A stretch of DNA of 64,000 bases from Candidatus Polarisedimenticolia bacterium (GCA_036505635.1 DASXTC010000038.1:5109-69108); one strand, 5' to 3'; counted from the stretch's first letter, positions 15,768 through 57,274 are shown. The notes: generated by a model not told the origin, from the sequence alone. Program-made: numbers and translations.

Positions 15768-15771
15768 CCTC

Positions 15772-27998: not shown

Positions 27999-28003
27999 AG
28001 CCG

Positions 28004-29920: not shown

Positions 29921-30431
29921 GCGCCTTCACGATCTCCCGGCAGAACGCGGGCAGGTCGTCCGGCGTGCGGGAGGTGATGAGGTTGCCGTCGCGCACGACC
30001 TCCTGATCCACGAACTCCGCCCCCGCATGCACCATGTCGTCGCGGATCGCCTTGTAGGAGGTCAGACGTCTCCCGCGCGCCACGCCCGCCGAGGCGAGCA
30101 CCCACCCGCCGTGGCAGATCGAGGCGACCACGCGGCGCTTGTCGCACAGCTCCTTCACGAGCCTCAGCACCCCGGCGTCCTGACGCAGACGGTCCGGGGC
30201 CCATCCGCCCGGGATCACAACCCCGAGCAGGTCGTCGGCCCGGACCTCGGACGCCGCCGCCTCGGCCTCGATCGGGTAGCCGTGCTTGGACGCGTACCTG
30301 GTCGCGCGTGGACCGATGACCACGGTCGCGTATCCTTCCTCCCTGAGCCGGTAGAACGGGACCCAGACCTCCATGTCCTGGTAGTCGTTCTCCACCAGGA
30401 CCGCCACTTTCCCTTTGACCATGCCGCTCAT
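29907..30431 (-). CDS. DJ-1/PfpI family protein
   Basis: ORF 29907..30500, preferred start M24 (ATG 30431, GGAGG 4 nt upstream). VAVLVENDYQDMEV...ASICHGGWVLASAG shows the nucleophile-elbow Cys (ICHG) of PfpI/DJ-1. Confidence 0.85.
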   Translation of the reverse strand: MSGMVKGKVAVLVENDYQDMEVWVPFYRLREEGYATVVIGPRATRYASKHGYPIEAEAAASEVRADDLLGVVIPGGWAPDRLRQDAGVLRLVKELCDKRRVVASICHGGWVLASAGVARGRRLTSYKAIRDDMVHAGAEFVDQEVVRDGNLITSRTPDDLPAFCREIVKALREA

Positions 30432-35854: not shown

Positions 35855-36832
35855 ATGAAGCCTCGTCTATTTCCGCTCTGGGCCTTGGTTCTCATCGGGT
35901 TGGCCGCGTGCGAAGGCCGCGCCGGCCGCGACCCCGTCTATTCAGGCACCGTGGAGGCGGTCGAGGTCAACGTCGCGCCCGAAGTCTCCGGCAAGCTCCT
36001 CTCCCGCCCCGTCGATCAGGGGGATACCGTCGAGCCGGGCACGCCGGTCGCGACGATCGATCCGGAGCCGTACCGCCTGGCCCTCGCGGAGACGGAGGCG
36101 GCCCGCGACGAGGCCAGCGCCAGGCTCGCCCTCCTGACCGCGGGGTACCGGAGCGAGGAGGTGGAGGCCGCCGCGCGCGAGATGGACGAAGCCGGCGCCC
36201 AGCTCACGCAGGCGGAGGCCCGCATCGGCCGGATCGAGGACCTCGTGGCCAAACAGATCGCCACGCCCGACGATCTGGACCTGGCGCGGCGCGATCGGGA
36301 CGCCGCCAGGGCGCGCCTGGCCGGGGCGAAGCAGCGCCACGCGCTTCTGGCCCGCGGATATCGTCGCGAGGAGATCGCTGCGGCGCGGGCCGAGGTCGCG
36401 CGTCTGGAGGCGTTGCGCGATCAGCGCGCGCTCGATCTGACGCGCACCACGGTGAGATCTCCCCTCGCGGGGACAGTGACCGAGAAGCTGATGGAGGTCG
36501 GCGAGTACGCCAGGCCGGGCTCTCCGATCGTGGCGGTGGCCGACCTGACCAACCTCTACACGTGGGTCTACCTCAGCGAGGTCGAGCTGGGCGGTGTGCG
36601 TCTCGGCGAGGAGGTCGCGGTCAGGATCGACTCGTACCCCGGCCGCGATTTTCGCGGCGTGGTGGTCTACATCTCCACGCAGGCCCAGTTCACTCCCAAG
36701 AACGTCCAGACCGTCGAGGATCGCGTGCAGCTCGTCTTCGGGGTCAAGGTGGCGGTGAAGAGCCCGGCCGGCGAGCTGAAGGTCGGCATCCCCGCCGACG
36801 TGGTGCTGGCCCGCCGCCCCTCCTCCCCATGA
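35855..36832 (+). CDS. HlyD-family membrane fusion (periplasmic adaptor) protein
   Basis: ORF 35783..36832, start at M25 (MKPRLFPLWALVLIGLAAC, lipoprotein-like). Coiled-coil hairpin (Ala/Arg/Glu-rich) flanked by beta-barrel segments typical of HlyD/EmrA adaptors. Confidence 0.75.
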   Translation: MKPRLFPLWALVLIGLAACEGRAGRDPVYSGTVEAVEVNVAPEVSGKLLSRPVDQGDTVEPGTPVATIDPEPYRLALAETEAARDEASARLALLTAGYRSEEVEAAAREMDEAGAQLTQAEARIGRIEDLVAKQIATPDDLDLARRDRDAARARLAGAKQRHALLARGYRREEIAAARAEVARLEALRDQRALDLTRTTVRSPLAGTVTEKLMEVGEYARPGSPIVAVADLTNLYTWVYLSEVELGGVRLGEEVAVRIDSYPGRDFRGVVVYISTQAQFTPKNVQTVEDRVQLVFGVKVAVKSPAGELKVGIPADVVLARRPSSP

Positions 36833-37761
36833 CCTCCGCCGCTCCGGGGATTGTCGCGGAGAAGCTCTCGAAGCGCTTCGGAACTCTCCTTGCCGTCGCG
36901 GACCTTGACCTGACCGTCGCCAGCGGGGAGATCTTCGGTTTCCTGGGCCCCAACGGCGCCGGCAAGACCACGGTGGTCCGCATGCTGTGCGGGCTCCTGG
37001 CCCCCACCGCCGGGCGCGCCACAGTGGCCGGCTTCGACGTGGTGCGCGAGGTCCGGCGTCTCAAGGAATCGATCGGCTACATGTCCCAGAAGTTCGGCCT
37101 CTACGCCGACCTGACGGTGAGGGAGAACATCGAATTCTTCGGTGGAGTCTATCTCGAGGACAGGCGCCAGGCGCGGGAGCGAACCGAGGAGGTCCTTTCG
37201 GAGATGGGGCTCGAGTCCCGAGCGTCCCAGCTCGCCGGCCAGCTCAGCGGGGGGTGGAAGCAGCGCCTCGCGATGGCCACCGCCATCGTCCACCGCCCCG
37301 CGATGCTCTTTCTCGACGAGCCCACCGCCGGAGTGGACCCGGTCTCGCGCCGCGAGATCTGGGACTTCGTCTACGGGATGCAGGGCCGCGGGATCACCCT
37401 CTTCGTGACGACCCACTACATGGAGGAGGCGGAGCGGTGCAACCGGATAGGCTTCATCCATTCGGGAAGGCTGGTGGCCCTCGGCACGCCGGCCGAGCTC
37501 AAGGCAAGCCGGATGGAGGCGCAGGTCCTGAGCCTGTCGGGCCCCGATCTCTACGGGATCTACCGGGCGCTGAAGGGGACCGATCTGGTGCTCGACGTGA
37601 ATCTGTACGGCAACGACCTGCACGCGGTGGTGGCTGACGCGGATGAAGCCCTGCCTCGGATCGAGGCCAGGGTGAAGGAATCCGGCCTGCTGCTGAGCGG
37701 CGCGCGGACCATTCCACCCTCCATCGAGGATGTCTTCGTGAGGCTGACGCGGAGAAGCTGA
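36829..37761 (+). CDS. ABC transporter ATP-binding protein
   Basis: Second half of ORF 35908..37761. Starts at ATG 36829 (ATGA overlap with HlyD stop). Walker A GPNGAGKTT, signature LSGGWKQRL, Walker B LLFLDEPTAGVD. Confidence 0.9.
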   Translation: MTSAAPGIVAEKLSKRFGTLLAVADLDLTVASGEIFGFLGPNGAGKTTVVRMLCGLLAPTAGRATVAGFDVVREVRRLKESIGYMSQKFGLYADLTVRENIEFFGGVYLEDRRQARERTEEVLSEMGLESRASQLAGQLSGGWKQRLAMATAIVHRPAMLFLDEPTAGVDPVSRREIWDFVYGMQGRGITLFVTTHYMEEAERCNRIGFIHSGRLVALGTPAELKASRMEAQVLSLSGPDLYGIYRALKGTDLVLDVNLYGNDLHAVVADADEALPRIEARVKESGLLLSGARTIPPSIEDVFVRLTRRS

Positions 37762-38894
37762 TGCACCGGCTGCGCGCCCTGCTCCTCAAGGAGTTGCGCC
37801 AGATGCGACGCGAGCCCCGGACGGTCGTCCTGAGCTTTGTCGTCCCGGTCGTCCTGCTCCTCCTGTTCGGCTACGCGGTCTCCTTCGATATCCGCGAGAT
37901 CCGCGTCGCCGTCTGGGACCGGGACGGCTCGGCGACGAGTCGCGAGCTGCTGCGGGCCTTCTTCTCCTCGGGTTATTTCCGGGAGGTGGAGAGGGTCTCG
38001 AGCGCGGGTGACGCGGAGCGGGCGCTCGACTCCGGACGCGCCGTGGCGGTCGTCGTGATTCCGAGAGGGTTCCATCGCGACGTGGAGCGGGCGGTCCCGG
38101 CGGAGATCCAGATCCTGCTCGACGGAAGCGATTCGGCCACCACGAGCGTGATCCAGGGACACGCGCGCAGGATCGTGCAGACCTTCACGGCGGAGATCCT
38201 GACGGTGCGTCTGCGCGAGACCGGCGTGGAGGGCGCCGGAGATCTGCTGCCGATCGATTTCGAGCCCCGGGTCCTCTACAACCCGGAGCTCAAGAGCCGC
38301 AACTTCATGGTGCCGGGGCTGATCGGCGTCCTGCTCACGATGCTCGGGGTCATCCAGACGTCGCTGGCGATCGCCAAGGAGAAGGAACGCGGCACGCTCG
38401 AGCAGCTTCGCATGACGCCGCTGCGCGCGCCGGAGATCCTGGTCGGCAAGCTGGCGCCCTACGCCCTGGTGGCCTTCGCCAACGCGTGGATCGCGCTGGG
38501 GCTCGGGCGGTTCCTGCTTCACGTGCCCGTCCGGGGATCGCTGCTCCTCTTCACCGCGGGCACCGTCCTGTTCCTGGTCTCGGCGCTGGGGATCGGCCTG
38601 GTGATCTCCGCCGCCACCGCGACGCAGATGGGGGCCCAATCGGCGGCCTTCCTGGCCGCGATGCTGCCGGTCTTCTACCTGTCCGACTACATGTTTCCGA
38701 TCCGCAACATGCCGGGCTGGCTGCAGGCGGTCACCTATCTGCTGCCGGCGCGCTTCTACATCGCCGTGCTGCGGGGCACGCTGCAGAAGGGAGTGGGATT
38801 CGCCGACCTGTCGGGCCCGCTCGCTGCGCTGGCGATCTACGCCGGCGCGATCGGTCTGATAGGGATCCTCGCGATCCGAAGGGCCTTCCGGTGA
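37761..38894 (+). CDS. ABC-2 type transporter permease
   Basis: 377 aa. N-terminal TM, large periplasmic loop, then 5 TM helices. TGATG overlap with ATPase stop. Confidence 0.85.
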   Translation: MHRLRALLLKELRQMRREPRTVVLSFVVPVVLLLLFGYAVSFDIREIRVAVWDRDGSATSRELLRAFFSSGYFREVERVSSAGDAERALDSGRAVAVVVIPRGFHRDVERAVPAEIQILLDGSDSATTSVIQGHARRIVQTFTAEILTVRLRETGVEGAGDLLPIDFEPRVLYNPELKSRNFMVPGLIGVLLTMLGVIQTSLAIAKEKERGTLEQLRMTPLRAPEILVGKLAPYALVAFANAWIALGLGRFLLHVPVRGSLLLFTAGTVLFLVSALGIGLVISAATATQMGAQSAAFLAAMLPVFYLSDYMFPIRNMPGWLQAVTYLLPARFYIAVLRGTLQKGVGFADLSGPLAALAIYAGAIGLIGILAIRRAFR

Positions 38895-40024
38895 GCGGGC
38901 ACCGCGTCGCGCGCCTCATGGTGAAGGAGGTCCTTCAGCTCCGGCGAGACCCGCTCGCCCTGCGTCTCACGTTCGTGGCGCCGATCCTGCAACTCGTGTT
39001 GCTGGGGTACGCGGCCACGCTCGATGTCCGGCACATCCCGACGGTGATCTGCGACCTGGACCGGTCGACGGCGAGCCGTGAGATGATCCGCGCGGTGCTG
39101 GAGTCGGGGTACTTCCAGGACGTGGGGCGCACCGACCGGATGGCGGAGGTGACCCGGCACCTCGACTCGGGACGGGCGGTGGTGGGGCTGGTCTTCCCGC
39201 CCGATTACGCGGAGCTGCTCGACTCGGCGGGGCGGGCGCCGCTCCAGGCGCTCGTGGATGGGGCCAACAGCTCGGAGGCGACCACGGCTCTTGGCCACCT
39301 GTCCGGGATCGTGATGGACCAGTCGATCCGGCTCGCCGTCCGGCGTCTGCCGCCTCAGGCCTTCTCCGGACGAATCGGCCCTCCCGTGGAAGCCCAGATG
39401 CGGATCCGGTACAACGAGTCGCTCGAGAGCAGCCACTTCATGATCCCGGGAGTGGCGGGTCTCATCATGCTCGTCAGCACGTTGCTGCTCATGGCGGTGG
39501 CCGTCACGCGCGAAAAGGAGATCGGCACGATCGAGCAGATCCTCGTGACGCCCATCCGCCCGGCGGAGTTCCTCCTCGGGAAGATGATCCCCTACTCGAT
39601 CCTGGGGATGATCAATGTCGGAGTCGTGCTGGCGGCCGCGCGTCTATGGTTCGGCGTGCCGGTACGCGGGAGCGTGATCCTGTTGTTCTCGCTGGCGGCC
39701 GTATTCCTTCTCACCACGCTGGGGACGGGGCTCTTCGTGGCGACCACCGCCCAGACCCAGCAGCAGGCGATGCTGCTCGCCATGGCCTTCGTCACGCCCA
39801 ACATGCTGCTGTCCGGGTTTCTCTTCCCCATCGAGAACATGCCGGAGGCCATCCAGTGGCTGACGTGGCTCATGCCGATGCGCTACTTCCTCACGATCAT
39901 CCGGGGCATCATGCTCAAGGGGGTCGGGCTCGAGACGCTGTGGCCACAGGTCCTGGCGCTGGCCGGGTTCGGTCTGGCCATTTTTCTGGCGAGCCTGGCG
40001 CGCTTCAAGACGCGGCTGGCGTGA
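38891..40024 (+). CDS. ABC-2 type transporter permease (second subunit)
   Basis: Second half of ORF 38486..40024. Starts at GTG 38891 (GTGA overlap). Paralogous to the preceding permease. Confidence 0.8.
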   Translation: MSGHRVARLMVKEVLQLRRDPLALRLTFVAPILQLVLLGYAATLDVRHIPTVICDLDRSTASREMIRAVLESGYFQDVGRTDRMAEVTRHLDSGRAVVGLVFPPDYAELLDSAGRAPLQALVDGANSSEATTALGHLSGIVMDQSIRLAVRRLPPQAFSGRIGPPVEAQMRIRYNESLESSHFMIPGVAGLIMLVSTLLLMAVAVTREKEIGTIEQILVTPIRPAEFLLGKMIPYSILGMINVGVVLAAARLWFGVPVRGSVILLFSLAAVFLLTTLGTGLFVATTAQTQQQAMLLAMAFVTPNMLLSGFLFPIENMPEAIQWLTWLMPMRYFLTIIRGIMLKGVGLETLWPQVLALAGFGLAIFLASLARFKTRLA

Positions 40025-40041
40025 CGCGGTGCGCCGACAGC

Positions 40042-40069
40042 TTGACCTTTCGAGTCCGGCAGGTAGAAT
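40042..40069 (+). promoter_or_regulatory. sigma70-like promoter candidate (TTGACC-16 nt-TAGAAT)
   Basis: TTGACC at 40042-40047 and TAGAAT at 40064-40069, 16-nt spacer, about 130 nt upstream of the GTG at 40199. A perfect inverted repeat TTCAAAgtgTTTGAA at 40106-40120 lies between promoter and start. Confidence 0.4.
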
Positions 40070-40198
40070 TGACCGGCGTTCTGAACAATTCGTTAACCCC
40101 TTGGGTTCAAAGTGTTTGAATGGGGCGCCTCCGCTCCACGCCGGCCCTGGCGAGCTCCCCCTGGAGGAATTCATCGTGATCGCGCAGGAGAGCCTGAC

Positions 40199-42436
40199 GT
40201 GAAGATCTCCGTCATCGGCGGCGGGCCGGCGGGCCTCTACTTCGGCATTCTCATGAAAAGGGCCGACCCGTCGTGCGACCTCACCATCCTCGAGAGGAAT
40301 CCCGAGGGAGTCACGTGGGGATGGGGCGTGGTCTTCTCCGACGAGACGCTGGAGAACTTCCAGGAGGCGGACGAGCCGACCTACCGGCGTATCGCCGAGA
40401 CCTTCGCGAGGTGGGAATCGATCGAGATCCTGCACCGCGACCGGGTCATCCGGTGCGGCGGGCACGTCTTCTACGGGATCCGCCGCATGCGTCTGCTGGA
40501 GATCCTCCAGACAAGGTGCCGCGAGCTCGGCGTGACGCTGCGGTTCAGCACGGAGGGGGCCGATCCATCGGACTTCGCCGGAGCCGACCTCGTCGTGGCC
40601 GCCGACGGGGTCAACTCGAGGATCCGGTCCGATCGGGCCGACGTGTTCAAGCCGGACATAGAGGTGGGACGCTCCCCCTACATCTGGCTCGCCACGTCGC
40701 GCGTGTTTCCTGCTTTCACCTTCATCATCCGGGAGAACGAGCACGGTCTGTTCCAGGTCCACGCGTACCCGTTCGACGAGGCGGCCAGCACCTTCATCGT
40801 GGAGACCGACGAGGCGACGTGGCGCCGCGCGGGGCTCGATCGCGCCACGGAGGCCGAGAGCGTCGCCTACTGCCAGAGTCTCTTCGCCCCGGAGCTGGCG
40901 GGGCATTCCCTGATGAGCAACAAGTCGACCTGGGGCAGGTTCCGCCGTGTCCGGTGCGGGACGTGGCGGCATGGCAACATCGTCCTGATCGGCGACGCCG
41001 CGCACACCGCGCATTTTTCGATCGGTTCGGGGACCAAGATGGCCATGGAGGACTCGATCGCGCTGGTCGGGGCGCTGAGGGAGGGGACTGGGATCCCGAG
41101 CGCGCTGGAGGCGTTCGAGGAGGCGCGCCGGATCGACATCCTGAAGCGACAGCGCGCCGCGGAGGTGAGCCAGCGCTGGTTCGAGGGGATCGCGCGGTAC
41201 CGGCGCTTCGAGCCGGAGCAGTTCGCGGCCAGCCTGATGACGCGCAGCAAGCGGGTCACTCACGGGAATCTCAGGAAGAGGGATCCGGGATACATCGCTG
41301 AGCTGGACCGCTGGTTCGCCGACCGCAACGGCTGCGCCGGGGTGGAGCCGCCGCCCCCTCCCATGTTCACGCCGTACCGGCTGCGGCGGATGGAGCTGGT
41401 GAACCGTGTGGTCGTGTCGCCCATGTGCCAGTACTCCGCGTCGGACGGCACGCCCGGCGACTGGCACCTCGTGCACCTGGGAAGCCGCGCCATCGGGGGA
41501 GCGGGTCTGGTGATCGCGGAGATGACCGACGTCTCCCGTGACGGGAGGATCACCCCGGGCTGCTCCGGCATGTACAAGGACGAGCACGTGGCTGCCTGGA
41601 GGCGGATCGTGGATTTCGTCCACGCGCACTCGAAGGCGAGGATCGCCCTTCAGCTCGCCCACGCCGGCCGGAAGGGTTCCACCAAGCTGATGTGGGAGGG
41701 GATCGACGACCCGCTGCCCGAGGGGAATTGGCCGCTGATCTCGGCCTCGGCGATCCCGTGGTCGCCCGCCAACCAGGTGCCCAGGGCGATGGAACGCGCC
41801 GACATGGACCAGGTGCGCGACGACTTCGCGCGGGCGGCGGAGATGGCGCGGGAGGCCGGCTTCGACATGCTGGAGATCCACTTCGCGCACGGGTATCTGC
41901 TGTCGAGCTTCATCTCCCCGCTGACAAACACCCGCGCCGACGAGTACGGCGGGCCGCTGGAGAACCGGATGCGTTACCCGTTGGAGGTCTTCGACGCGGT
42001 GCGGCGCGTGTGGCCGGTGGATCGCCCGATCTCGGTGAGGATCTCGGCCACCGACTGGGTCGAAGGCGGGTTCGAGCCGGACCACGCGGTCGAGGCGTCG
42101 ATCATGCTCAAGGCTCACGGGTGCGACATCATCGACGTGTCATCCGGTATGACGACGCCGCGGGCAGCCCCGGTCTACGGCGCGATGTACCAGACGCCGT
42201 TCGCCGACCGGATTCGCAACGAGGCGGGCATCCCGACGATGGCGCTGGGCAACATCCAGAGCTGGGACCAGGTCAACACCATCATCGTGGCGGGGCACGC
42301 CGACCTGTGCGTCCTGGCGCGGCCCCACCTTTTCGACCCCTACTTCACGCTGCACGCGGCCGCCGATCAGAAGCACGACGACGCGCACTGGCCCAACCAG
42401 TACCTGGCGGCCCGGCCAAGGCGGGGGCGCGCGTGA
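40199..42436 (+). CDS. bifunctional FAD-dependent aromatic hydroxylase / Old-Yellow-Enzyme-type NADH:flavin oxidoreductase (salicylyl-CoA 5-hydroxylase-like fusion)
   Basis: ORF 40112..42436, preferred start GTG 40199 (AGGAG 8 nt upstream; [16 protein letters not shown] = FAD GxGxxG). [25 protein letters not shown] flavin-monooxygenase motif. C-terminal OYE domain with PMCQY and [14 protein letters not shown] motifs. Confidence 0.8.
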
Positions 42437-45138
42437 CCACCTGCGCCTCGTGCAGCAACGAGGTGCCGGAAGCGAGCCGCTTCTGTCTGTCGTGCGGCGC
42501 CTCGCTCGACTCCTCGGCCATCCCGACGCTCCTGGATTATTCGCGCCCGCCACCGTCCGGTTCGCATTCCACCGGTGACGATCCCGAGCGCGTCCGCCTC
42601 GAGCCGGGTGTCGTGCTGGGGGGGCGCTACCGCATCCTCGGACCGCTCGGACGGGGAGGGATGGGCGAAGTCTTCCACGCGGACGACCTGAAGCTTGGCC
42701 AGCAGGTCGCGCTCAAGTTCCTGCCGGCCCTCTTCGCCACCGACCCGGGCCGCGTCGCCCGGTTCCACGGCGAGGTGCGACTGGCCCGGCAGGTCTCCCA
42801 TCCGAACGTCTGCCGCGTCTACGACATCGGGGAGGCCGACGGGCACCACTACATCTCGATGGAGTACGTCGACGGAGAGGACCTCTCCTCACTGCTCAGG
42901 AGGATCGGACGGCTCCCCGGCGACAAGGCGGTCGAGCTCGCGCGACAGTTGTGCGCCGGGCTGGCCGCCGCCCACGAGAGGGGAGTGCTCCACCGGGACC
43001 TGAAACCGGCCAACGTCATGATCGACGGGCGGGGGAGGGTGCGGATCACCGACTTCGGGCTGGCGGCGCTCGCGGTCGACCTGAAGGGCGCTGGCGCGCG
43101 GGAGGGGACCCCCTACTACATGGCCCCCGAGCAGCTCGCGGGCAAGACGATCTCGATCCGCAGCGACCTCTACTCGCTGGGGCTGGTGCTGTACGAGATG
43201 CTGACGGGGCGTCCTCCCTTCAAGGCCGACACGATGGCCGAGATGTCGAGGATACGCGAGAAGTCGACCCCCGCCACGCCCAGCAGCATCGTTTTCGACC
43301 TCGACCCGGCCCTGGAGCGCGTGATCCTGCGGTGTCTCGAGCACGACCCCGCCGCCCGGCCCGCCTCGGCGCTCGCGGTGGCCGCGGCCCTGCCCGGGGC
43401 CGACCCGCTGGCGGCGGCTCTGGCCGCGGGCGAGACCCCCTCCCCTGAGATGGTGGCGGCGGCCGGCGACGTGGGGGGGATCCAGCCCGCCATGGGGCTG
43501 GCGTGCCTGGCCGTCCTGTCGGCGGGATGCTTCGCTCTGGCGGCGCTCGGGCCCGCCATGCTTCTGCCCGGGCGGGTGCCCCTCGTCTCTCCGCCCCAGG
43601 TGCTCGAGGCCAGGGCGCGGGAGGTGATCGGCCGGCTCGGCTACACCGAGCAGCCGGCCGACGCCGCCGGTTCGTTCTCCGTCGACGACGAGGCGCTCCT
43701 CTTCATCGAACGAAACGACGCGTCCTTCGATCGATGGGAGAGGATCCGCGGCGGTCGTCCGGCGGTCATGCAGTACTGGTACCGGCAGAGCCCTCGCTCC
43801 CTGGAGCCGACCGACTTCTTCGGGCATCTCATCGGCAGCATCATCGTGGACCCGACCGACCCGCCCCCGGTGATCTCCGGGATGGTGGGAGTCCGGCTCG
43901 ACTCGCAGGGACGTCTCATCGAGCTGAGCGCGGTGCCGCCGCAGGTGGACAAGGTTCAGGGAGCCTCACCGGAGCCCGACTGGCAGAAGCTGTTAGCCGA
44001 GTCCGGCCTCGATCTCTCCATGTACAGGCCGGCGGAGTCCGAGTGGCTGCCTCCCGTCTATTCCGATGCGCGGAGCGGATGGGTGAGGAGGGACGCGGAC
44101 CGGAGGGACCTCCCGGATCGCGTGGAGGCCGCGGCCTACCGCGGCCGGCCCGTCTACTTCCAGATGATCTGGCCGTGGACCCGGCCGGCCCGGATGCTCC
44201 CTTACCACCAGACGCGGGGCGAGGTCGCGAGCCGGACCGTTCTCGTCATCATCTTCCTGGCGGTCCTCGTGGGGGGAGTGCTGGTGGCGCGGCACAACCT
44301 TCGCCTCGGACGGGGGGACAGGCGCGGCGCCGTCAGGCTGGCGCTCTTCGTGATGGCCGTGCTGATGGCCATCTGGCTCCTGAGGACGAGCCACGTGGCG
44401 ACTTTCTACGAGCTGGGCCTCTTCATCATGGGGATCAGCGGCGCCCTGTTCGGTGGGGGGCTCGTCTGGCTCCTCTACATCGCGCTGGAGCCATACGTGA
44501 GAAGACGCTGGCCCCTCATCCTCATCTCGTGGAGCCGGCTCCTGGCCGGGCGCCTGCGGGATCCCCTGGTCGGCCGCGACCTCCTGCTCGGCTCGTTGTT
44601 CGGGGTGGGCGTGCAGGTCTTCGTCATCCTCGTCCGATTCTCGACCTGGGCCATGGGCTTGGCCCCCATCGGGCCGATACCGACGCCGGTGAGCGCGCTG
44701 ATGGGTGTGCAGTTCGCGGCGGCGGACTTCCTGCTGCGGCTGACGCTCTTCCTGTTCGCGTCGATGGCGCTCCTGTTTCTCTTCTTCCTGCTGCGGCTCG
44801 CCGTGAGGAAGGAATGGCTCGTGGGGCTGATCATCGTCCTCATCTTCGGCGTCAATTCGGCGGCGGTCAGCAACCTTCCGGCGGTCGGGTTCGTCCTTTC
44901 AGCGGGCGTCTGGACCTCGCTCCTGCTGATTCTGACGCGGCGGGGGCTGCTGGCGCTGGTGGTTGCGTTCTTCGTGTGTTCCCTGGCGCAGGCGTTCCTG
45001 CTGACCCTCGACCCGACGGCCTGGTACGCCGGGACCACCTGGCTGGCGATCGCGGTGATCGTGGCGCTTTCAGGGTACGGCTTGAAGGTGGCGCTGGCGG
45101 GCCGGCCGGTCTTCGGGGCGATAGGTCTGGACGAGTAG
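42433..45138 (+). CDS. polytopic membrane Ser/Thr protein kinase with N-terminal zinc-ribbon
   Basis: In-frame part of ORF 41692..45138 from GTG 42433 (GTGA overlap with upstream stop). [20 protein letters not shown] zinc ribbon. Kinase [36 protein letters not shown] at about 43490, then a roughly 280-aa extracytoplasmic region, then about 7 C-terminal TM helices. Confidence 0.8.
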
Positions 45139-45160
45139 GGACCTGCGAGGAGGCAGAGCT

Positions 45161-45943
45161 TCACTGCTCCAGAACGTACTCCTTCTCCGTGAAGGTCCAC
45201 GCGCCCAGGGCAAGCAGCCCGGCCGCGGTCGCCAGGAGGACGATGACGGCCGTGGCTGGCGCGGTGGGCGATTCGAAGAAGCCGAGCACACCGCGCTCCC
45301 CCGCGGGGTGGGGCAGGAGCGCCAGAATGTAGTGCTTGATGGTGAGCTTGCTGAGGTAGCCCGGGATGAAGGTGACGAGTGTCTCCCACACGATCGAGAA
45401 GCCGAGCCCCACCAGCACCGGACGCTTGAAAACCGCGCCGAGCAGCGCATAGAGCGACCCGTACGTGAGGATCTCCAGCTCGAGTACGGCGAGGTCCTTG
45501 GCGAGGATGACCAGGTGCCCGGCGGCCTCTCCCGGGGGGTCGCTCGTCATCGCGATGAGGAAGCAGAGCGCGGCCGAGGGGATGAGGAGCAGAGAGGCGA
45601 CCACGAGGTAGGCGAGGTACTTGCCCACGTAGATCGTCGCCTTGGGCACCGGCCGCATGAAGAGATAGGTGATCGTCTTCTCGTCGATCTCTTCGGACAC
45701 CAGCGAGGTCGCGTAGAAAAGCGTCACGACCACCGCCAGCACGTAGACGTAGAAGTTCACCATGATGAAGGAGATCAGGCTGAAGCCGGTCAGCCCCGAT
45801 GGCCCCTGCCGGCTCATGATCAACAGGGCGCCGGCCGCCGCCAGCAACAGCGGCAGGAAGCAGATCACGGCGAATACCATCGTGCGCCGGCTCCTGAGAA
45901 GCACGGTCAGCGAGAGCCGGAAGATTGCATTGAGTGGACTCAT
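45161..45943 (-). CDS. ABC-2 family transporter permease
   Basis: ORF 45161..46696, start at ATG 45943 (MSPLNAIFRLSLTVLL...). 6 TM helices, 260 aa. Confidence 0.75.
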   Translation of the reverse strand: MSPLNAIFRLSLTVLLRSRRTMVFAVICFLPLLLAAAGALLIMSRQGPSGLTGFSLISFIMVNFYVYVLAVVVTLFYATSLVSEEIDEKTITYLFMRPVPKATIYVGKYLAYLVVASLLLIPSAALCFLIAMTSDPPGEAAGHLVILAKDLAVLELEILTYGSLYALLGAVFKRPVLVGLGFSIVWETLVTFIPGYLSKLTIKHYILALLPHPAGERGVLGFFESPTAPATAVIVLLATAAGLLALGAWTFTEKEYVLEQ

Positions 45944-45966
45944 GCGCGAGCGCCCATCATCATCGG

Positions 45967-46898
<932 letters not shown>

Positions 46899-46902
<4 letters not shown>

Positions 46903-47738
46903 GTGACGATCTCCACGGCCTTGACGCGGCGTCTGAGCACCAGCACCGAGAGCCCCATGAGCAGCGAGTACATCAGCAGCGTTGGCACCAGGTGGACCCC
47001 CTCCTCCGTGGGCCCGCCGAAGCAGATGGCACCGATCTGGTCGGCCAGCGAGACGAGGGACAGCACGGCGAACGCTCTCAGCCCCGTGATGAGCTGCAGA
47101 AGCCCCGCTCCGGCCTGCGAGAAGAAGACCAACGCGAAGAAGAGCAGGCCCGCGTACCGCCCGCTGCGCGTCATCGACGAGATGGCTAGGATGATCAGAC
47201 CGGCGCCGCCGACCACCAGGATCGAGTAGGCGAGGATCGCCAGGGGGACCCAGAAGTTGGCCGTCAGGAACTTCGTGTCGGTGGAGAGTCCCAGCTCCAT
47301 CAGGTAAAGGAGCAGCGCCGGCACCGGCAGCAGGATCGAACCGACCCCCGCGATGATGGCGAACTTGCCCACGACGTAGTCGATTCGCGTCAGGGGGCGC
47401 GCGAGATAGAGCTGGATGGCGTTGGTCTTCAGATCGTGGGCGATGAGCGGCGCTCCGATCCAGATCGAGACCAGCAGGAGGAAGAGACCCTGTCCGAGCA
47501 GCGTGTTGCGGAAGAACTGCGCGTCGATCATCTCGAACGGATTCGCGTTGAGCTGATGTGTGCCCCAGATGAGAACGCCGCGCACGATCGGATGGATGTA
47601 GGCGATGAACAGAAAGATGAGAAAGACCCGCCGCGACAGGTGCTGCGTCAGCCCCGCTTTCGCGATGGTGCGCCACCGCCACGTGTGGGTGGAGAGAGTC
47701 CCGCGATAAGGCCGGTACGACATGTCATAAATAGGCAT
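46899..47738 (-). CDS. ABC transporter permease (polytopic membrane protein)
   Basis: 279 aa, 6-7 TM helices, directly upstream of and overlapping the ATPase gene. Confidence 0.7.
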
Positions 47739-47872
47739 GTGCTATCTCAATCCCCGAAGAGCCGGGTGGTGGCGGACCAAATGGGCGCGGACGGCGAGCG
47801 AGCGCGGAGCCGAGCACGCGCCGGGCGCGAGCGCAGGCGTGCCCGAGGGAGGGTTCTCCCGCCGTCCCGTTG

Positions 47873-48805
47873 TCATCTTTCACCAACAGCCCGTGCGAAC
47901 ACATCCTCCAGAGTCGGCTGCTTCCTCACCAGGTGCCTCACCTGCGCACGTGCCGCGTTGGCGGCCCCGAAGATCGCCTCGGAGCCCATCCCGTCGCGCA
48001 TCGAAACGTCGAGCATCCCGTCCTGCCCCGGCGTCGCGGCGCACCCGTGCTGCGCCAGCATCCTCGTGAACTCGCCCTGCTGCTCGGGGCTTCCCTTCAG
48101 CCTCACCTCGAACAGCTCGCCGGAGGCTCCCTTGAGCGCCTCGATGCTTCCCTGGCCCACGACCTTGCCGTGCGACAGCATCACGACCGAGCGACAGGTC
48201 TCCTCGACGTCCCGCAGCAGGTGGCTCGACAGCACCACGTTGACGTTCTTGCGCTGAGCGAGGTCCCGGATCAGGGCGAGCATCTCCATCCGCCCCTTCG
48301 GGTCGAGCCCGTTGGTCGGCTCGTCCAGAAAGAGGATGTGCGGCCCGTGCACCAGCGCCTGCGCCAGCTTCACTCGCTGCCTCATCCCGGTGGAATAGGT
48401 CTCGACGTTGCGGTACCGCTCGTCGCCCAGCCCCACGTAGTAGAGCGCCTCGTGGGCGCGCTGCAGCGCCTCGACCCCCGGCATGCCGCACAGCTCGCCC
48501 ATGTAGGCGGTCAGCGACACGGCGTTCATCCCCGGGATGTGACAGTCGATCTCGGGCATGTAGCCGACCTTCTGCCTCACGTCGAGGGGGTGGGTCGCGA
48601 CGTCCATTCCGAGGACCCGGGCGCTTCCCGCGCCCGGCGTCAGGAACCCGAGCAGCGTCTTGAGCAGGCTGGACTTACCCGCCCCGTTGGGGCCCAGCAA
48701 CCCCACCGCCCCGGCCGGGAAGATGGCGCTCACGGAGTCCAGCGCGCGGCTCCTGCCGTAGAGGATCGTCAGCCCTTCGACCTGGATGACGCCGTCGCCG
48801 CCCAT
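47873..48805 (-). CDS. ABC transporter ATP-binding protein
   Basis: ORF 47873..48856, preferred start M18 (ATG 48805; GGGGGA 6 nt upstream). GPNGAGKSS, YSTGMRQRV, ILFLDEPTNGLD. About 90-aa C-terminal extension. Confidence 0.85.
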   Translation of the reverse strand: MGGDGVIQVEGLTILYGRSRALDSVSAIFPAGAVGLLGPNGAGKSSLLKTLLGFLTPGAGSARVLGMDVATHPLDVRQKVGYMPEIDCHIPGMNAVSLTAYMGELCGMPGVEALQRAHEALYYVGLGDERYRNVETYSTGMRQRVKLAQALVHGPHILFLDEPTNGLDPKGRMEMLALIRDLAQRKNVNVVLSSHLLRDVEETCRSVVMLSHGKVVGQGSIEALKGASGELFEVRLKGSPEQQGEFTRMLAQHGCAATPGQDGMLDVSMRDGMGSEAIFGAANAARAQVRHLVRKQPTLEDVFARAVGER

Positions 48806-48865
48806 GGAGGTCCCCCGCATGCCGCTATCTACGGATGGAGGCGCAGGTTGGTTCATCGGAAGGTC

Positions 48866-49294
48866 TCAGGATTCAATCCGGAACTTGAAGATGTACCGGG
48901 AGAACGACGTCCCCGCGATGATGACGTCGTGGTCCTTGAGAAGGACCTCGTCGGGCCGGGCGCCGCCGCCGAGAACCTCCCCCTCCACGATGGTCCCGCA
49001 GGTGGAGCCGCGGTCGAGCAGGAAGAAGCCGCCGGCTCTCCGGTCGATGAGGAAATGCTCGCGCGACACGTTCATCGGTTCGCTCTCCTCCACGAGGTAG
49101 AGGTCGTTGTTGGGTGGGGCCTCCGTGCGCCGCTCGCCCACCAGGCCCAGCTCGGTCCACTTGAACCGGCGCGACTCCCGGCCGACCCGGAAGGGCAGGT
49201 GCGGGATGTTGATCTCGTGGGCCTGGAACGCGGCGGCGCTCTCGGGAGTGAGAGCCACGAGGTAGGCGCCCGTGGGGCCGGGTGCGTCAGGCAT
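48866..49294 (-). CDS. FHA (forkhead-associated) domain protein
   Basis: 142 aa. FRVGRES...YLVE..SREHFLIDRRAGGFFLLDRGSTCGTIVEG matches the FHA fold core (GR, SxxH, N/D-G). First gene of the minus-strand ABC cluster. Confidence 0.8.
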   Translation of the reverse strand: MPDAPGPTGAYLVALTPESAAAFQAHEINIPHLPFRVGRESRRFKWTELGLVGERRTEAPPNNDLYLVEESEPMNVSREHFLIDRRAGGFFLLDRGSTCGTIVEGEVLGGGARPDEVLLKDHDVIIAGTSFSRYIFKFRIES

Positions 49295-49977: not shown

Positions 49978-50763
49978 TCAGGGGCGCCGCGCCGTCGCGA
50001 AGATGATTTGTCCATCGTCGGTGAAGTCCGCCGGGGGCATCGTCGCGAGCCTGCGGCGGGCGCCGGCCATGAAGGAAGCCTTGGCGGCGGGCGTCAGGGA
50101 CTCCACACGCCGCCTGCTCCCGCCGAGCTCCGTCCCTTTGGCGATGAACCCCTCCAGCGTGAACCGATGCTCGAACGGAGAGGACCACGCGCTGACGGAG
50201 GCGAATCCGGCGCGACGCAGGAGCGAGCCCACCTTGGCCGGCGTGCTCACCGGCTCGTGGTCCGCGATCGCCGGTTCGGCGGGCGCCGCGCCGTGCGCGT
50301 CCAGCTCCTCGTTCCAGGCCTGGAGCGCGGGGAAGCTCGGCTCGCCATCCCAGGTCGTGGCGCCGATCGCGCCGCCGGGGCGCAGGACTCGGGCGGCCTC
50401 TACGAGGGCGTCGAGCGGCGAGGGCACGTGGAACAGCATGAAGGCCATCACCGCCGCGTCGAAGACGCCCGTGCCCAGGGCCAGATGCCGCGCGTCGCAG
50501 ACGGCGAGCCCGTGTCCGGCCGGCGCGAGGCGCAGCATCCCGTGAGAGCCATCCACCGCCACGACGAAGGCGCGAGGGGCCGCGCCGGAGATGTCGGCCA
50601 GGAGCGCGCCCACTCCCGAGCCGATGTCGATCACGCGCGAGGCCTCGGAAAGCGGGAGAGCCGCAAGCAGCCGCCGCGCGTGGGGATTCAGGACCGGCGC
50701 CCAGAGCTTGAGATAGGCGAGGGCGTCCGACGAGTAACGGGACGCGACCTCGGCGCTCTTCAA
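49978..50763 (-). CDS. class I SAM-dependent methyltransferase
   Basis: 261 aa (first codon TTG, overlapping the stop of the upstream giant gene). VIDIGSGVGAL motif I, VLRPGG post-motif II. Confidence 0.8.
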   Translation of the reverse strand: MKSAEVASRYSSDALAYLKLWAPVLNPHARRLLAALPLSEASRVIDIGSGVGALLADISGAAPRAFVVAVDGSHGMLRLAPAGHGLAVCDARHLALGTGVFDAAVMAFMLFHVPSPLDALVEAARVLRPGGAIGATTWDGEPSFPALQAWNEELDAHGAAPAEPAIADHEPVSTPAKVGSLLRRAGFASVSAWSSPFEHRFTLEGFIAKGTELGGSRRRVESLTPAAKASFMAGARRRLATMPPADFTDDGQIIFATARRP

Positions 50764-53700
50764 AACGCCTGCCCGATCGAGAAGAAGAACTCGCCACGGC
50801 TCTCGGGCCGGCGTCCCACGGCGCGGCCGAGCTCATCGTAGACGAGATCGTGGTCGAGCTTGCGCCCGTACTCGACCCTGAACGGGCCCAGCGGCGTGTC
50901 GAACCTCAGCCCGGTGCCCAGCACGTGCCGCAGGTCGGTCACGTCGAAATCCCTCAGGCGGGCGTAGACATTGCCCGCGTCGTAGAAGACGACCCCCTTG
51001 AGCGCTTTGAAGATGGGGAAGCGCAGCTCCTGGTTGATCAAGAACAGCGCATTGCCGCCGACCGGCTTCAGGTTGTCGATCGCGAAGCCGACAATAGGGT
51101 TGGCGGGGAGGTTCGGGTCGCACGGGTTGCGTGGGCAGACATTGTAAGGGGAGTTCGGGTCCTCCAGAATCCGCTTGGCTGGCTCCAGAGGGCCGACCGT
51201 GTTGAACCGGAATCCGCGCAGCGTTGTGTCTCCGCCGGCGAAGAACCGCTCGCTGATCGGGATGTTGTGCGAAGTCACCAGGCCGATCCTCGCCGAGGAG
51301 GCCCAGACGACGCCGCGGCCGATCTCCTTGAAGGCGTTGGCCGAGGCGAACGTCCTCACGAACGCCTCTTCGGAGCCAAGCGCCCGGTGATAGAGCCTCA
51401 CGTCGAACGTCGAGAAGCCTCCCCGCGACGGGTTTATGATGTCGTCGCGCGTGTCGTGGGCCATGGAAGTGGCCACGCTGGCGAGCCTCACCGTCTGCTG
51501 TCCGGTCTCCTCAACGGGAACCCGGAGGTCGAACAGGTTGATGTCCTCGAGGCGATACCGCCCGAACAGCGTCGTGTTCTCGCCCAGCTTGCGCGACAGC
51601 TGCACGGAGCTGCCGACGCGCCGCAGGTCGAACGACTCCAGCTCCTGGCGCTCCACGAACCCGGTCATCAGGGTCTCGATCTTCTCGCCGAAGAGGTTTG
51701 GATCACGCAGCGTGACCTGCACGCGCCGGTCCACCGCGGAGCCGCGCACGAAGAGGGCCGCCGAGCGCCGTGTCCCGAACAGGTTGTTGTTGGCGATCTC
51801 GAACGAAGCCCGGGCGCGGTCCTTCGAGTCGTATCCGACTCCCCAGGCCGTCAGCAGGGGAGATCCCTCCTGGACCCTGACCCTGACATCCACGAATCCG
51901 GGCTTGCCTTCCACCGGCAGGGTGTCTATCTCGACTGAACGGAAGACGCCGAGCCGGTACAGGTTGCGCTGCGTGGTGAGGACCGCTGACCGGGTGAGGT
52001 AATCGCCCCGGTTCAGCGGGATCTCGCGGTCCACGATCCGGTCCAAGGTTCGCGTGTTGCCCTCCACCAGCACCTCGTGGACTCGGACCCGGCCGAGGGG
52101 GATGATCGAGAAGACCACGCGGGTGCGCTGCGGCTCACCTTCGAGCCGCGTGCTCACGCGCGCGCGCGAGTATCCCTCATGGTCGAGCGCTTCGCGCACT
52201 CTGTCCGCAGCCAGGCTCACGATCTCGGCGTTGACGACCTGGGTCTGCGAGAGACCAGCCGCGCGCAGGAGATCCTCTCCCGGCACTCCCTCGGCCTCAC
52301 CCTCGATAACGACGGCGCCGATCCGAGCCTGCGGCCCCTCGTCCTCGATCGCGATCGCGACGTCGGCCTCCTTGCCGTCGGCCGACAACGTGACGACGGG
52401 CGTGGCGATCCTGACGGCCAGGTATCCGTTGGCCAGGTAGAGCCCGCGGATCGCCGCCACGTCGTCCTTGAGGACCGGCTCCTTGAGCAGGCCGCGTCCG
52501 AACAACCGCGTGAATCCTCCCACGCGCGTCAGCATCTGCCTGCGGATCCTCTCCTCAGGTATTCCCCGGTTGCCGGTGACGCTCACCGAATGGACGTGCA
52601 CCTTCGGGCCGGGCTCCACGCTCAGACTCACGGTCCGAACCGGCTCACCCCGTGGTGCGACCTCGGCCGGCGCTTCCATCCTGGCCTCCACTCGCGCAGA
52701 ATAGTACCCGTCCCTCCTGAGCAGGCCCAGCGCCGCCTTACGCGCCTCCTCCACAAGGTCATCCAGCAGGATCGGCTCCCTCCAGGCTCGCAGGACGGCC
52801 TTCCGGATCGGCCGCTCGCCCACGTCACCCTGGATCGCCAGCTCGTGCCGCGGACCGGACCGGATCGCGTACTGAACGTCGACGGTCGTTCGCCCCACCA
52901 GGGACGCGGCGTCGCCCTCGATGAGGTCCACCTCGGCGGCCGGAAATCCACGCCTGACGTATTGCTCCCTCAGGATCTCCCGGCCTTCCAGCAGGTCCCC
53001 GCGGCGAAACAGGTCCCCCTCGTCGAACGGGAGCCTGCGGACCAGGGCGCTCTGGCTGTCTATGAGATGGTCCGCCGCGAGCGAGACGGAGCCGATGCGC
53101 AGGAGCCGCGGCCCCACCGTGCTCTGCCCATCTCCTTGAGGGAGCGCAACGGGGTCGGGTCCGGGCGGCGTCCAGCCCCATCCCCGCCACCGTCTGCGAA
53201 TCCTCACGTCGGCCCCCACCGAGCCGTCCAGGTCGCGGGTCGCCAGGAGGTCCCAGAGCCGGCCCGGGTTGTACTCGATCTGGTAGATCTCCTGGCCGTT
53301 CTGGCCGAGGCTCGCCGAGTATGTGAAAAGGAGGTTCGAGGCCATCCGCTTCGTCACGGTGAGCCGCGCGGACGGATCGGCGGTGCCGTTGAGGAAGAAC
53401 GGATCGAGCTGAACGCTCGAGACACCGAGGATCTTCTCCAGCGGCGCGGAGACGGCGCCGGTGACCGGGGTCGCCAGGTATGCGGCGACCTGCCCCTCGG
53501 CCATCGTGCGGGCCCCTTCGCTCTCGGAACCCGACAGGGTGTTGCCGGTCATCAGCAGCCACACCACGTCGCGCTGGGGGAGGGCGGGATCGGAGGCCAG
53601 GTCGTAGATCGGTCTGGAGAAACGCCCCGAGATCCTCAGCGTGATCTCGTACTGCTGCACGCGCGTGACCGCCTCGATGTCGATGAGCGGATCGATGCGC

Positions 53701-56700
53701 GCCACGTCGGCGAAGTCGAGCGCGCCGCCCACGATGCGGTAGGTGACGTCACGGAACCGGTAGGTGCCCCCTTCCAACGCGGAGATCCTCCCGGAAAGCT
53801 CCGGCTCGTCGAGGGTCCCTTGGAGCGAGAGGTGCGCGGAAGCCTCGATCAGCGCCTCCTCGTTGCGGATCCAGACATCACGGTCGGCCGCGATGGCGAT
53901 GTCGAGGAAGACCACCGGGGCGCCGGCGCCGCGCTCCCTGGCCGGCGCGAACTCCCGGCCGCGCAGAAGCAGCTCGGTGGGCTCCACCCCGAAGGCGCGC
54001 GTGTAGACGGCGCGCTGGATCGACACGCGTCCACCGAACCGGTAGGCGCCCGAGTCCTTGTCGAGCGCCATCTCGGCGTCGAAGAAGGCATGCAGGTCGG
54101 GAAGGATCTCGGCGCGGATCCCCTGGCCGGTCAGCGCCAGGTGGAGCTGCGGCACGCCGGCCCCCTCGAAGCGCACCCACCCCGCCCCCGTGGCGTGGCC
54201 GCCGCCGGTGTCGAACCGGAGCTCCTCGATGTTGAGGAGACCCTGCTCGGTGAAGGACCCGCGCCCGCGAAGGTTCTCCAGAGGCAGGGGCAGCGCGGGA
54301 TGCCGCACCGTGCCCCCCTGAAGCGTCAGGCCGCCCGCGTAGGTCAGCACGTCGCCGCGCTCGATGACGTGCAGGTCGGCCGTGCCGAGTCCGGTGGCCC
54401 GCATCTCGGGTGCGATCAGCTCCGCCAGCGACAGGTCGAAGGTGCCTGCGACGCGGGCGGTGACGTCGTAGTGGCCCGACAGGGCCATCGAGCCGCCCAG
54501 CGTCAGGTCGGTCCTCTCCCCGATGAGCCTCATCGGGGCCACCGTGAGGAACCCGTCCTGTACCGTGACGCGCACCGGCTCGTCGTTGCGAAGCGGGTCG
54601 TCGCCCGCGGTGAGGGCCAGGCGATCGAGGGTCGCGCGCACCAGAAGGGCCGAGGGTTCCCGCAAGGGGCCCGTGACGGTGACGGTGCCATCGGCCTCTC
54701 CTTTCAACCCCGCCAGCGCGCCGCGGGGAAGAAGCGGCCTGACCTCCTCGAGGCTGAAGCCGCGCACGGCGACGGTTCCCTCCACCGAGCCGCCGGCCCC
54801 GAAGTCCGCCGCCACCTTCAGGCTGCCGAGCTCGTCCTTCAGCTCGAGGCGCAGCCTCGCGTCGGGGCCCGTGACCGGCCCGGCGAGCGTGCCCTCGAGG
54901 CCGCCGAGATCGATCCCGGCGATGTGGACGTCACGCCCCGCCAGGGTCGCGTTCACCGCGACGTCGCCGTCGATCGTGAGACGACCGCCGGCGTCCAGGG
55001 AGCCGGACATCGAGGGGCCCGCGTAGGCGGCATCCACAGCGCCCAGATCGATCCCCGAAACGGAGACCTCCAATGAGCCGGCCGCGCGCGGCGGCGCCAG
55101 GTCCACCGCGCCATGGCCCCGCGCCAGCCCGCCGCACCAGATGAGCGAGATCTCGTCGAAGTGTACCTTCTTTTCCTCGATCCGCGCGAGAGCCTTCAGG
55201 TTCGTGAAGGCGAGCGGGCCGAGGGAGATCGCCTCGCTCTCGAGCCGGAGGGTCCCGTCTGGGCCGGCGAGGTGAACCCCGCCGCGCAGTATCCCGCCGG
55301 CGGCCATCCTGTCCTGATCGATCCCGGCGAGCCGCGCGGCCAATGCGGCCGGCAACGCCGTGGCGTCCAGGTCGAGGTCGAGGACTTCCCAGCGCCCGGG
55401 CCGGATGCGCAGCGCCCCCTGCGCGCTGAGGTCGGCCCCCTCGGCGCGGCGCAGGTCGAGCCTCATCAGATCCGTGCGGTAGACCACGTCGCCGGCGGCC
55501 GCCGTCAGCGGGATCGGGACGCGGGCCGCGGCTGCCCCCCCACCGCCGGACAGCGCGGGGACCTGGACGGTCAGCCCGTCCGACTCGAACGAGGCGCGCA
55601 CCTCGGGGCGCGCCGAGGTCCCCTCCACCTCGATGTGGGCGGTTGCCCGGCCGATCAGATCGGTGGGGCGCGTCACGCCGCGTCCAAGGGCCGGAAAGCG
55701 TCGCTCCAGGAAGGAGGCGAGCGGTCGCGTGTCGCCGGCTGACAGCTCCGCCGTCACCTCCATGCCAAGGACCGCGGCCGTTGCGTCGAAAATGCCGGCG
55801 AGCTCGATGGCGGCGCCGGGCGCCTGGAGGAAGGACGACTCCACCGTCACGCGCGATCCCCTCCAGTCGACCATCGCCGTCCCCGAGAGGGGCAGCTCCC
55901 CGTCGAGCCGATCGAAGGCGAGGTCGGCGGTGCCGGCCATCCCATCGGTCCGGCTCCCGGTCCATCGGACGGTGGCGTCGCCTGACAGGAGCGCCGATGG
56001 CGTGACTCCGTCCTCGCCGGGCAGATCGAAATGCCCCAGCACCTCATCGAGGTGCAGCGCCTTCGCCGTGATCGACGCCTCGTGCTCGCGCGGCGTCTCG
56101 TCCGCGGAGCCGTACTTCACTCCGACGTATCGCCCCTCGACGGTGCCCCCCGAGAACGACTCGAGCGTGCCGCCGATCTCGATCCGCCCCGGCTCGACCG
56201 AGAAAGTCCCCGCGCCGCGCGCCGCGGTCCAGGGCGCGGCCGGTCCGTCACTGAGGGAGCCGTCGTCGGCTTGCCTTCGGTCCGCGTCGATCACGGGGCC
56301 GGTGGCGACGAAGGTGCCGTTCACCTTGACGCCTTCGGCGGAGAGGGTGACGCGCAGGTCGCACGTCAGCTCCTTGGCGCCGAACTGCGGGAGGGGCCTT
56401 CTCAGCGAGGGCCCCGCGGGATCGAGGCGGGCCTCCCCCTCGAACCGGCCCCGCACCGGCGTCCCGGGCTGGACCTGGCCCGAGGCGCGGATGTCGACCC
56501 CCTCGGCCTTCAGGCGAAGGCGCTTCGTCCTGATCGATTCGCGGTCCGCCTCGAACGAGAGGGAGCCGTCCAGCCCGCTCAGCTGAAGGTCGCCGAGGGC
56601 GAACCTCCCCCGGTGAAAGAGGGCCGTGCCCTCGTAGGGGCCCCAGTAGCCGAACATCGTGTTGTCGGCATGGAGCTGGAGCCCCTCGATCTCGGCGCTC

Positions 56701-57203: not shown

Positions 57204-57274
57204 AGTCTAATCGCTCCAAACGAGGCGTGGTATCATCCCCACCCTTTGAAACACGAACGCAGGGAGAGTCCTCC

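Follow-up and report, generated by a model that had tools for sequence, protein, structure and literature searches.

A flavoenzyme gene whose stop codon overlaps the start codon of a membrane kinase gene raises the question of whether the two products work together. We addressed it for such a pair in a 64,000-nucleotide stretch of DNA from a Candidatus Polarisedimenticolia bacterium, referred to here as the window. A first interpretation made from the DNA alone (the sequence-only reading) had suggested that the flavoenzyme may serve the kinase as a partner that senses redox state or aromatic ligands, and may not be a catabolic enzyme. The features on which the question turns are the following:

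40199-42436, + strand: flavoenzyme gene, 745 aa, two-flavin (Pfam, NCBIfam)
40199-41257, + strand: FAD monooxygenase half, about residues 1-353 (match to the VioD structure)
41363-42409, + strand: Old Yellow Enzyme (OYE)/FMN half, residues 389-737 (match to YqjM-class OYE structures)
42433-42436, + strand: GTGA overlap of the flavoenzyme stop (TGA 42434-42436) and the kinase start (GTG 42433-42435)
42433-45138, + strand: receptor Ser/Thr kinase gene, 901 aa (Pfam, hydropathy, AlphaFold2 model)

We propose, with a probability of about 0.72, that these are two functionally independent genes. A single event within one sub-lineage of Ca. Polarisedimenticolia (Acidobacteriota) would have brought them side by side, and in the window genome alone they would then have been packed into a 4-base stop/start overlap; by such ordinary gene packing the overlap would bring about co-transcription and probably translational coupling. 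The first gene would encode an ordinary enzyme of the 2-aminobenzoyl-CoA monooxygenase/reductase / salicylyl-CoA 5-hydroxylase family. The second would encode one of thousands of acidobacterial receptor kinases that combine a cytoplasmic zinc ribbon and kinase domain with a possibly PepSY-like ectodomain and nine bundled membrane helices; its sensor half presumably responds to a signal from the membrane or from outside the cytoplasm. We judge the coupling incidental, and the juxtaposition local and apparently recent, because close relatives separate the genes or lack the kinase.

The sequence-only reading is thus partly supported: its description was accurate save for one OYE motif and the number of transmembrane helices, and its idea of a partnership is not supported. 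Since the comparative evidence points to incidental coupling, the pair is probably unimportant as a flavoenzyme-kinase signalling module. Two by-products are of modest interest. One is an orphan clade of flavoenzymes that have no CoA-pathway genes nearby; the other is a family of acidobacterial receptor kinases, very large and uncharacterised.

The gene pair in the window and in related loci

Codon positions bear out the overlap. Within the kinase frame no other start codon lies nearer to the junction than the GTG at 42433, and the JGI prediction for an identical 901-aa kinase (P0001, on a 175-kb JGI contig) starts at the same codon. A 4-base gene overlap is not unusual in the window, because two other junctions, HlyD/ABC-ATPase (36829-36832) and ABC-ATPase2/ABC2d (46899-46902), overlap likewise. 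For the flavoenzyme and kinase genes, overlapping stop and start codons occur only in the window genome and not in its relatives.

To collect relatives, a single genome was scanned for each species; this gave 80 flavoenzyme loci from many phyla, to which 80 further metagenome loci were added. When searched by tblastn with the sensor half of the kinase (residues 335-901; 43435-45138), only 3 of 162 flavoenzyme loci (L001, L002 and L004) contained a counterpart, and the pair was absent from the other 150 homologue loci of the genome and metagenome sets. The clade relatives, from Ca. Polarisedimenticolia and with flavoenzymes 71-77% identical to that of the window, are arranged as follows:

L001, flavoenzyme 77% identical: kinase at 10291-12999, its ATG (10291) 55 bp after the flavoenzyme TAG
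L002, flavoenzyme 72% identical: kinase at 9898-12573, preceded by DUF1015, 2-hydroxyacid dehydrogenase and class-V aminotransferase genes (6310-9857)
L004, flavoenzyme 71% identical: kinase at about 16258-18942, preceded by the same three genes (12728-16249)
L003, flavoenzyme 74% identical: flavoenzyme ends at 12232, next gene at 12242, kinase absent
L084, L085, L086 and L095, flavoenzyme 71% identical: no orthologous kinase in the available sequence (about 10 kb downstream for L085 and L095, about 1.5-1.7 kb for L084 and L086)

Among the nine clade loci with at least 1.5 kb of downstream sequence, the pair is adjacent in two, interrupted in two and without an orthologous kinase in five, three of which (L003, L085 and L095) have about 10 kb downstream. 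The order in L003 is otherwise that of the window: outer-membrane protein, HlyD, ABC, ABC2, ABC2, flavoenzyme and then, on the opposite strand, ABC2, ABC, ABC2, ABC, FHA and TamB. The three genes that intervene in L002 and L004, whose dehydrogenase is SerA-like and aminotransferase SerC-like, are absent from the window.

All loci that carry the kinase group together in the flavoenzyme tree (bootstrap 64), which indicates that the juxtaposition is a single evolutionary event. The kinases at this position in the window, L001, L002 and L004 are 45-48% identical to one another, and the flanking genes 70-78%. Their kinase domains share 71-74% identity, no more than with any other family member, and their sensor halves share 35-39% and rank last among 122 family members compared. 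This low identity reflects either very fast divergence of the sensor or replacement by paralogues. A conserved enzyme-kinase pair should be kept across independent lineages and above its surrounding genes, and this pair is neither.

Several observations nevertheless weigh against the independence of the two genes. Both are almost certainly co-expressed in the window genome, where the junction leaves no space for a terminator or promoter. Flavoenzyme-then-kinase order on the same strand is kept in four loci, even across the three inserted genes, and the gaps in L002 are short and operon-like (75, 16, 10 and 40 bp). An unrelated kinase gene directly adjoins two other orphan loci (L084, divergent; L107, downstream). 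The clade has no usual CoA-pathway neighbours and carries R662 to S/A and R700 to H/Y replacements; given the lost neighbours and these two changed arginines, the role of the clade enzyme may be non-canonical.

The GTGA overlap, the shared gene order, the missing CoA ligase and the clade-specific changes at 6 of 175 conserved positions are also what speaks for the rival view, in which the flavoenzyme would have been recruited to the kinase, either as a cytoplasmic partner that senses redox state or aromatic ligands or as a substrate, and the overlap would provide stoichiometric co-production. Yet the kinase is precisely missing from the otherwise identical L003 block, no orthologous kinase was found at the four further 71%-identical loci, two of which offer about 10 kb downstream, and three biosynthetic-type genes separate the supposed partners in L002 and L004. 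The positional kinases are not mutual closest relatives, their family is otherwise unlinked to such flavoenzymes, and one evolutionary event accounts for the pairing. The kinase, moreover, has a large sensor module of its own, and the flavoenzyme retains every part of the catalytic signature that a metabolic enzyme would have. Neither the synteny of the clade nor the family contexts support the sensing role, which we regard as very unlikely. A version confined to the window, L001, L002 and L004, in which an orphan flavoenzyme no longer acting on CoA thioesters was captured into an operon with the kinase and gives that kinase a cytoplasmic redox or small-molecule input, or is phosphorylated by it, appears highly improbable. 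We know of no description of a flavoenzyme-coupled Hanks kinase signalling unit.

The sequence-only reading had itself pointed to synteny in relatives as the place to look, and both of the findings that it had named as contradicting its idea turned up there: a family in which 89 of 143 members sit beside aryl-CoA ligase or enoyl-CoA hydratase genes without kinase linkage, and a real separation of the two genes in L001, L002 and L004, to which the loss of the kinase in L003 is added.

The flavoenzyme and its neighbourhoods

The predicted fusion of an FAD hydroxylase with an OYE domain was confirmed by Pfam (FAD_binding_3, residues 127-311, 4e-17; Oxidored_FMN, residues 389-721, 1e-64). The profile comparison with SdgC-like enzymes that the sequence-only reading had suggested gave a full-length match: NF006101, "bifunctional salicylyl-CoA 5-hydroxylase/oxidoreductase", scored 1173.4 bits against a curated equivalog cut-off of 1078, with residues 1-741 covering profile positions 1-751 of 768. 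The motifs GGGPAG, GDAAH..GSG, SPMCQY and HFAHGYLL are present, the last of which had been misread as HGAHGYLL. A PDB sequence search matched the two halves separately to VioD and to YqjM-class Old Yellow Enzymes, and returned no full-length structure of an FAD-monooxygenase/OYE fusion. The GTG start at 40199 agrees with the homologue N-termini M/V-K-I-x-V-I-G-G-G-P-A-G, and is preceded by a ribosome-binding signal:

40186-40190, + strand: Shine-Dalgarno-like AGGAG, 8 nt 5′ of the flavoenzyme GTG (read from the sequence)

The exact protein (P0121) is present at NCBI in a metagenome-assembled genome (MAG) of Ca. Polarisedimenticolia, under the NF006101 name. By these sequence criteria the flavoenzyme is a member of the SdgC / 2-aminobenzoyl-CoA monooxygenase-reductase family, an assignment already made by the NCBI pipeline. 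Enzymes of this family use NAD(P)H and O2 in their FAD half to hydroxylate an activated aromatic acid; their FMN (OYE) half can reduce what is formed. Judging from family membership and the conserved motifs, the window flavoenzyme is predicted to hydroxylate such a substrate and may reduce the product.

We next consider the company that such genes keep. Neighbours within 7-kb flanks were counted at 81 flavoenzyme loci (L001, L002, the window and the 80 genome loci, with two that were not clustered left aside), with neighbouring open reading frames (ORFs) clustered and cluster representatives annotated with Pfam. An AMP-binding CoA ligase was found in 52 of the 81 loci, enoyl-CoA hydratase (ECH) in 35, RidA in 32, SDR in 31 and a PaaX-type regulator in 21. 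Across the 143 full-length homologues, 89 have an aryl-CoA ligase or ECH gene within 7 kb, usually together with RidA, SDR or PaaX, and these 89 show no kinase linkage. The family neighbourhood is the classical anthranilate/salicylate-CoA catabolic cluster. The pair of ligase and monooxygenase/reductase genes and the reaction have been described (PMC3534580), and the anthraniloyl-CoA monooxygenase route is left out of GapMind because too little is known about it. Literature searches gave only catabolic-pathway mentions, and nothing on orphan members or kinase links.

In the window, as the sequence-only reading had stated, no CoA ligase or thioesterase accompanies the hydroxylase: tblastn of the whole 64 kb found no homologue of the CoA ligase, ECH, RidA, SDR or PaaX, and Pfam annotation of 40 translated stretches, comprising most of the longer predicted ORFs, found no aromatic-catabolic gene. 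A neighbour-joining tree of the 143 full-length enzymes resolved two coherent clades without any CoA-pathway neighbours. One is that of Polarisedimenticolia (10 loci and the window); the other comprises about 23 loci, mostly Myxococcota MAGs, its metagenome members carrying no taxon label. Together they hold 33 of the 143 sampled PRK08255 enzymes, about a quarter. No CoA-pathway gene lay within 7 kb at the clade loci analysed, the 7-kb flanks being complete for part of them. For enzymes of these orphan clades the name "salicylyl-CoA 5-hydroxylase" appears to be an automatic and unverified label.

The larger orphan clade includes L008, L014-L016, L018, L019, L022-L024, L031, L035, L037 and L063, and its sub-groups adjoin a FadL/TodX-like outer-membrane protein or unannotated proteins. 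Kinase genes occur once per 21 kb near orphan flavoenzymes and once per 425 kb near linked ones. We rejected this excess as a functional signal and ascribed it to kinase-rich phyla, for which the sole background is the window's own two kinases in 64 kb.

Sequence conservation was assessed at 175 alignment columns whose conservation among the 89 ligase- or ECH-linked members reaches 95% or more. The Polarisedimenticolia clade retains 169 of these, the six exceptions being D38V, F40W, G90A/V, T348S, R662S/A and R700H/Y. Such changes leave room for a different chemistry, in which the clade enzyme would not be an aryl-CoA enzyme and its substrate would be a quinone, an electrophile or an aromatic in free form, in a stress-detoxification setting of DJ-1/PfpI, zinc-dependent alcohol/quinone dehydrogenase (Zn-ADH) and PspC, with the kinase irrelevant. 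Of 10 clade loci, 7 have a DJ-1/PfpI gene 5′ of the flavoenzyme, often with PspC and Zn-ADH, and in four (L002, L085, L086 and L095) it directly adjoins the flavoenzyme; no CoA-pathway genes were found near any clade member, two conserved arginines are replaced, and activated alkenes and quinones are common substrates for reduction by OYE domains. On the other hand, the profile score exceeds the equivalog cut-off with 169 of 175 conserved positions kept, a ligase gene could lie in another part of the genome, and DJ-1 and the alcohol dehydrogenase may merely share a conserved block with the flavoenzyme, as the kinase does. One of the changed arginines (R662/R700) aligns with the non-catalytic "GRADL" of YqjM, in a mapping that is not decisive. 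We consider this detoxification role unlikely, and prefer an ordinary metabolic enzyme of the family, of uncertain substrate for want of a linked ligase and functionally independent of the kinase.

The kinase and the surrounding operons

The kinase gene encodes a polytopic protein with these parts:

42442-42507, + strand: zinc ribbon, residues 4-25 (C4/C7/C18/C21; weak match to Zn_Ribbon_1)
42628-43368, + strand: Hanks kinase domain, residues 66-312 (Pkinase, 1.5e-54)
residues about 352-376: first transmembrane helix, TM1 (hydropathy, AlphaFold2)
residues about 380-594: ectodomain, about 215 aa (hydropathy, AlphaFold2)
44215-45096, + strand: bundle of nine transmembrane helices, residues about 595-888 (hydropathy, AlphaFold2)

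Pfam, motif inspection and the AlphaFold2 model agree with the sequence-only reading on the Cys4 zinc ribbon, the intact Hanks domain and the large extracytoplasmic loop. The catalytic motifs are complete (GRGGMG73, VALK95, HRDLKPAN187-194, DFG207 and APE231), and the four cysteines (C4, C7, C18 and C21) are conserved across the kinase family; the kinase is apparently active. Where about seven C-terminal helices had been counted, hydropathy and the model (residues 335-901, mean pLDDT 87.7) place nine, making ten transmembrane helices with TM1. The C-terminal 567 aa gave no Pfam match even at E = 10, and a Foldseek search of the sensor model against the PDB returned nothing significant. In the model, the ectodomain may be PepSY-like, and the 9-helix bundle weakly resembles SpdC/Rce1.

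Among 1.8 billion representatives, the sensor half defines 6657 clusters at 50% identity. In full-length representatives (about 900 aa) it spans residues about 330-900 and follows an N-terminal part large enough for a kinase domain; this architecture applies to the full-length proteins among the 150 representatives listed, about half of which are shorter. Named matches belong to Acidobacteriota, except one "Patescibacteria group" MAG. An alignment of 45 family sequences showed strongly conserved motifs and the family-invariant residues H654, E660 and E686-x3-R690. The kinase is one of a very large acidobacterial receptor-kinase family whose sensor half has no Pfam model, and no characterised member was found for the sensor/membrane half. 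The four closest full-length homologues (52-54% identity) lie in unrelated neighbourhoods with no flavoenzyme and no FHA or ABC neighbours.

The operons on either side of the pair are:

35855-40024, + strand: HlyD-like adaptor, ABC ATPase and two ABC-2 permeases (Pfam)
45161-49294, - strand: convergent operon of FHA protein, ABC ATPase, ABC-2 permease, ABC ATPase and ABC-2 permease (Pfam)

The convergent operon suggests another partner for the kinase. In mycobacteria, PknF and Rv1747 are the paradigm for an FHA domain that reads kinase-made phosphothreonine, and by analogy the FHA protein of this operon would read phosphothreonine made by the window kinase, leaving the flavoenzyme a bystander. 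FHA domains bind phosphothreonine, the FHA gene (48866-49294, - strand) heads the operon, and only 22 bp separate the operon end from the kinase stop; the arrangement is the same in L001 and nearly so in L002. However, the operon, which is conserved in L001, is also conserved in L003, where there is no kinase, L004 has the kinase and no ABC2c match in the 3.3 kb available downstream, and the four nearest kinase-family members stand apart from FHA and ABC genes. We therefore find this partnership distinctly unlikely, and retain independent genes as the preferred explanation; what speaks for this and the other rival readings is circumstantial. Considered separately from the kinase, the FHA-ABC operon is a possible phosphothreonine-regulated exporter.

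Upstream of the flavoenzyme, two candidate signals are present where the sequence-only reading had placed them, and neither is conserved in relatives:

40042-40069, + strand: sigma-70-like promoter TTGACC-16 nt-TAGAAT (10 of 12 matches)
40106-40120, no strand assigned: perfect palindrome TTCAAAgtgTTTGAA in the presumed 5′ untranslated region (UTR), unique in the window

The promoter-like site is the sole one in 39500-45600 (6.1 kb), where shuffled sequences give 0.2 expected. A conserved operator was rejected, as the palindrome is absent from all 167 related loci searched and the upstream regions of relatives are not alignable; on the latter ground the promoter-like site, too, is taken as not conserved. 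A riboswitch in the 5′ UTR was likewise rejected, since an Rfam scan of 39800-45400 gave no match and the folding is on a par with shuffles (z = 0.17). The HlyD/ABC/ABC-2 operon lies directly 5′ of the flavoenzyme in the window, L003 and L083, with the flavoenzyme starting about 55 bp (L003) or 38 bp (L083) after the ABC-2 permease gene.

Elsewhere the window (G+C 66-73%) is rich in signalling genes. A second kinase gene (27629-29920, + strand) joins a STAND-type NTPase (nSTAND1/AAA_22) to a C-terminal Pkinase domain, and sits between Zn-ADH (24475-25482) and DJ-1 (29892-30422, - strand) genes that are adjacent in relatives. A hybrid histidine kinase with PAS-HisKA-HATPase-2xREC-Hpt architecture (7957-11232, + strand) and a REC-PilZ response regulator (4493-5176, - strand) lie further upstream. 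Beyond the FHA-ABC operon come a methyltransferase gene and a single 2148-aa ORF (50760-57206, - strand) with a YhdP/DUF748-like N-terminus, TamB, three POTRA domains and an Omp85 barrel. This TamB-POTRA-Omp85 fusion looks like TamB and TamA in one polypeptide and is conserved in L001 (17111-end) and L003 (16890-22070).

Comparison with known systems

Among known kinases, the best NCBIfam match of the window kinase is PknB_PASTA_kin (NF033483), through the kinase domain only, at 292 bits against a cut-off of 450. With this score below the cut-off and no PASTA repeat match, membership of the PASTA kinases was rejected. For the 9-helix bundle, membership of the CPBP/Abi (type II CAAX protease) superfamily (PF02517; e.g. 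S. aureus SpdC and Rce1) was rejected, as neither Pfam nor Foldseek gave a match and H654, E660 and E686-x3-R690 do not follow the order of the EExxxR / FxxxH / HxxxN motifs. Like PknB/Stk1 PASTA kinases, the window kinase has an N-terminal cytoplasmic Hanks domain, a transmembrane helix and an extracytoplasmic sensor; unlike them, it adds a Cys4 zinc ribbon, an ectodomain that may be PepSY-like and a 9-helix C-terminal bundle that has no Pfam model.

The flavoenzyme has the same length and FAD-monooxygenase plus OYE architecture as 2-aminobenzoyl-CoA monooxygenase/reductase from Azoarcus evansii, the salicylyl-CoA 5-hydroxylase SdgC from Streptomyces sp. WA46 and NF006101/PRK08255 proteins in general. 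It is 52-63% identical to homologues that adjoin aryl-CoA ligase genes, and keeps the flavin and OYE motifs. In contrast to NF006101/PRK08255 systems, it has no aryl-CoA ligase, ECH, RidA, SDR or PaaX gene either in its 64 kb or near the 10 other clade members, and in contrast to ligase-linked PRK08255 members, its clade has changed six conserved positions, two of them arginines.

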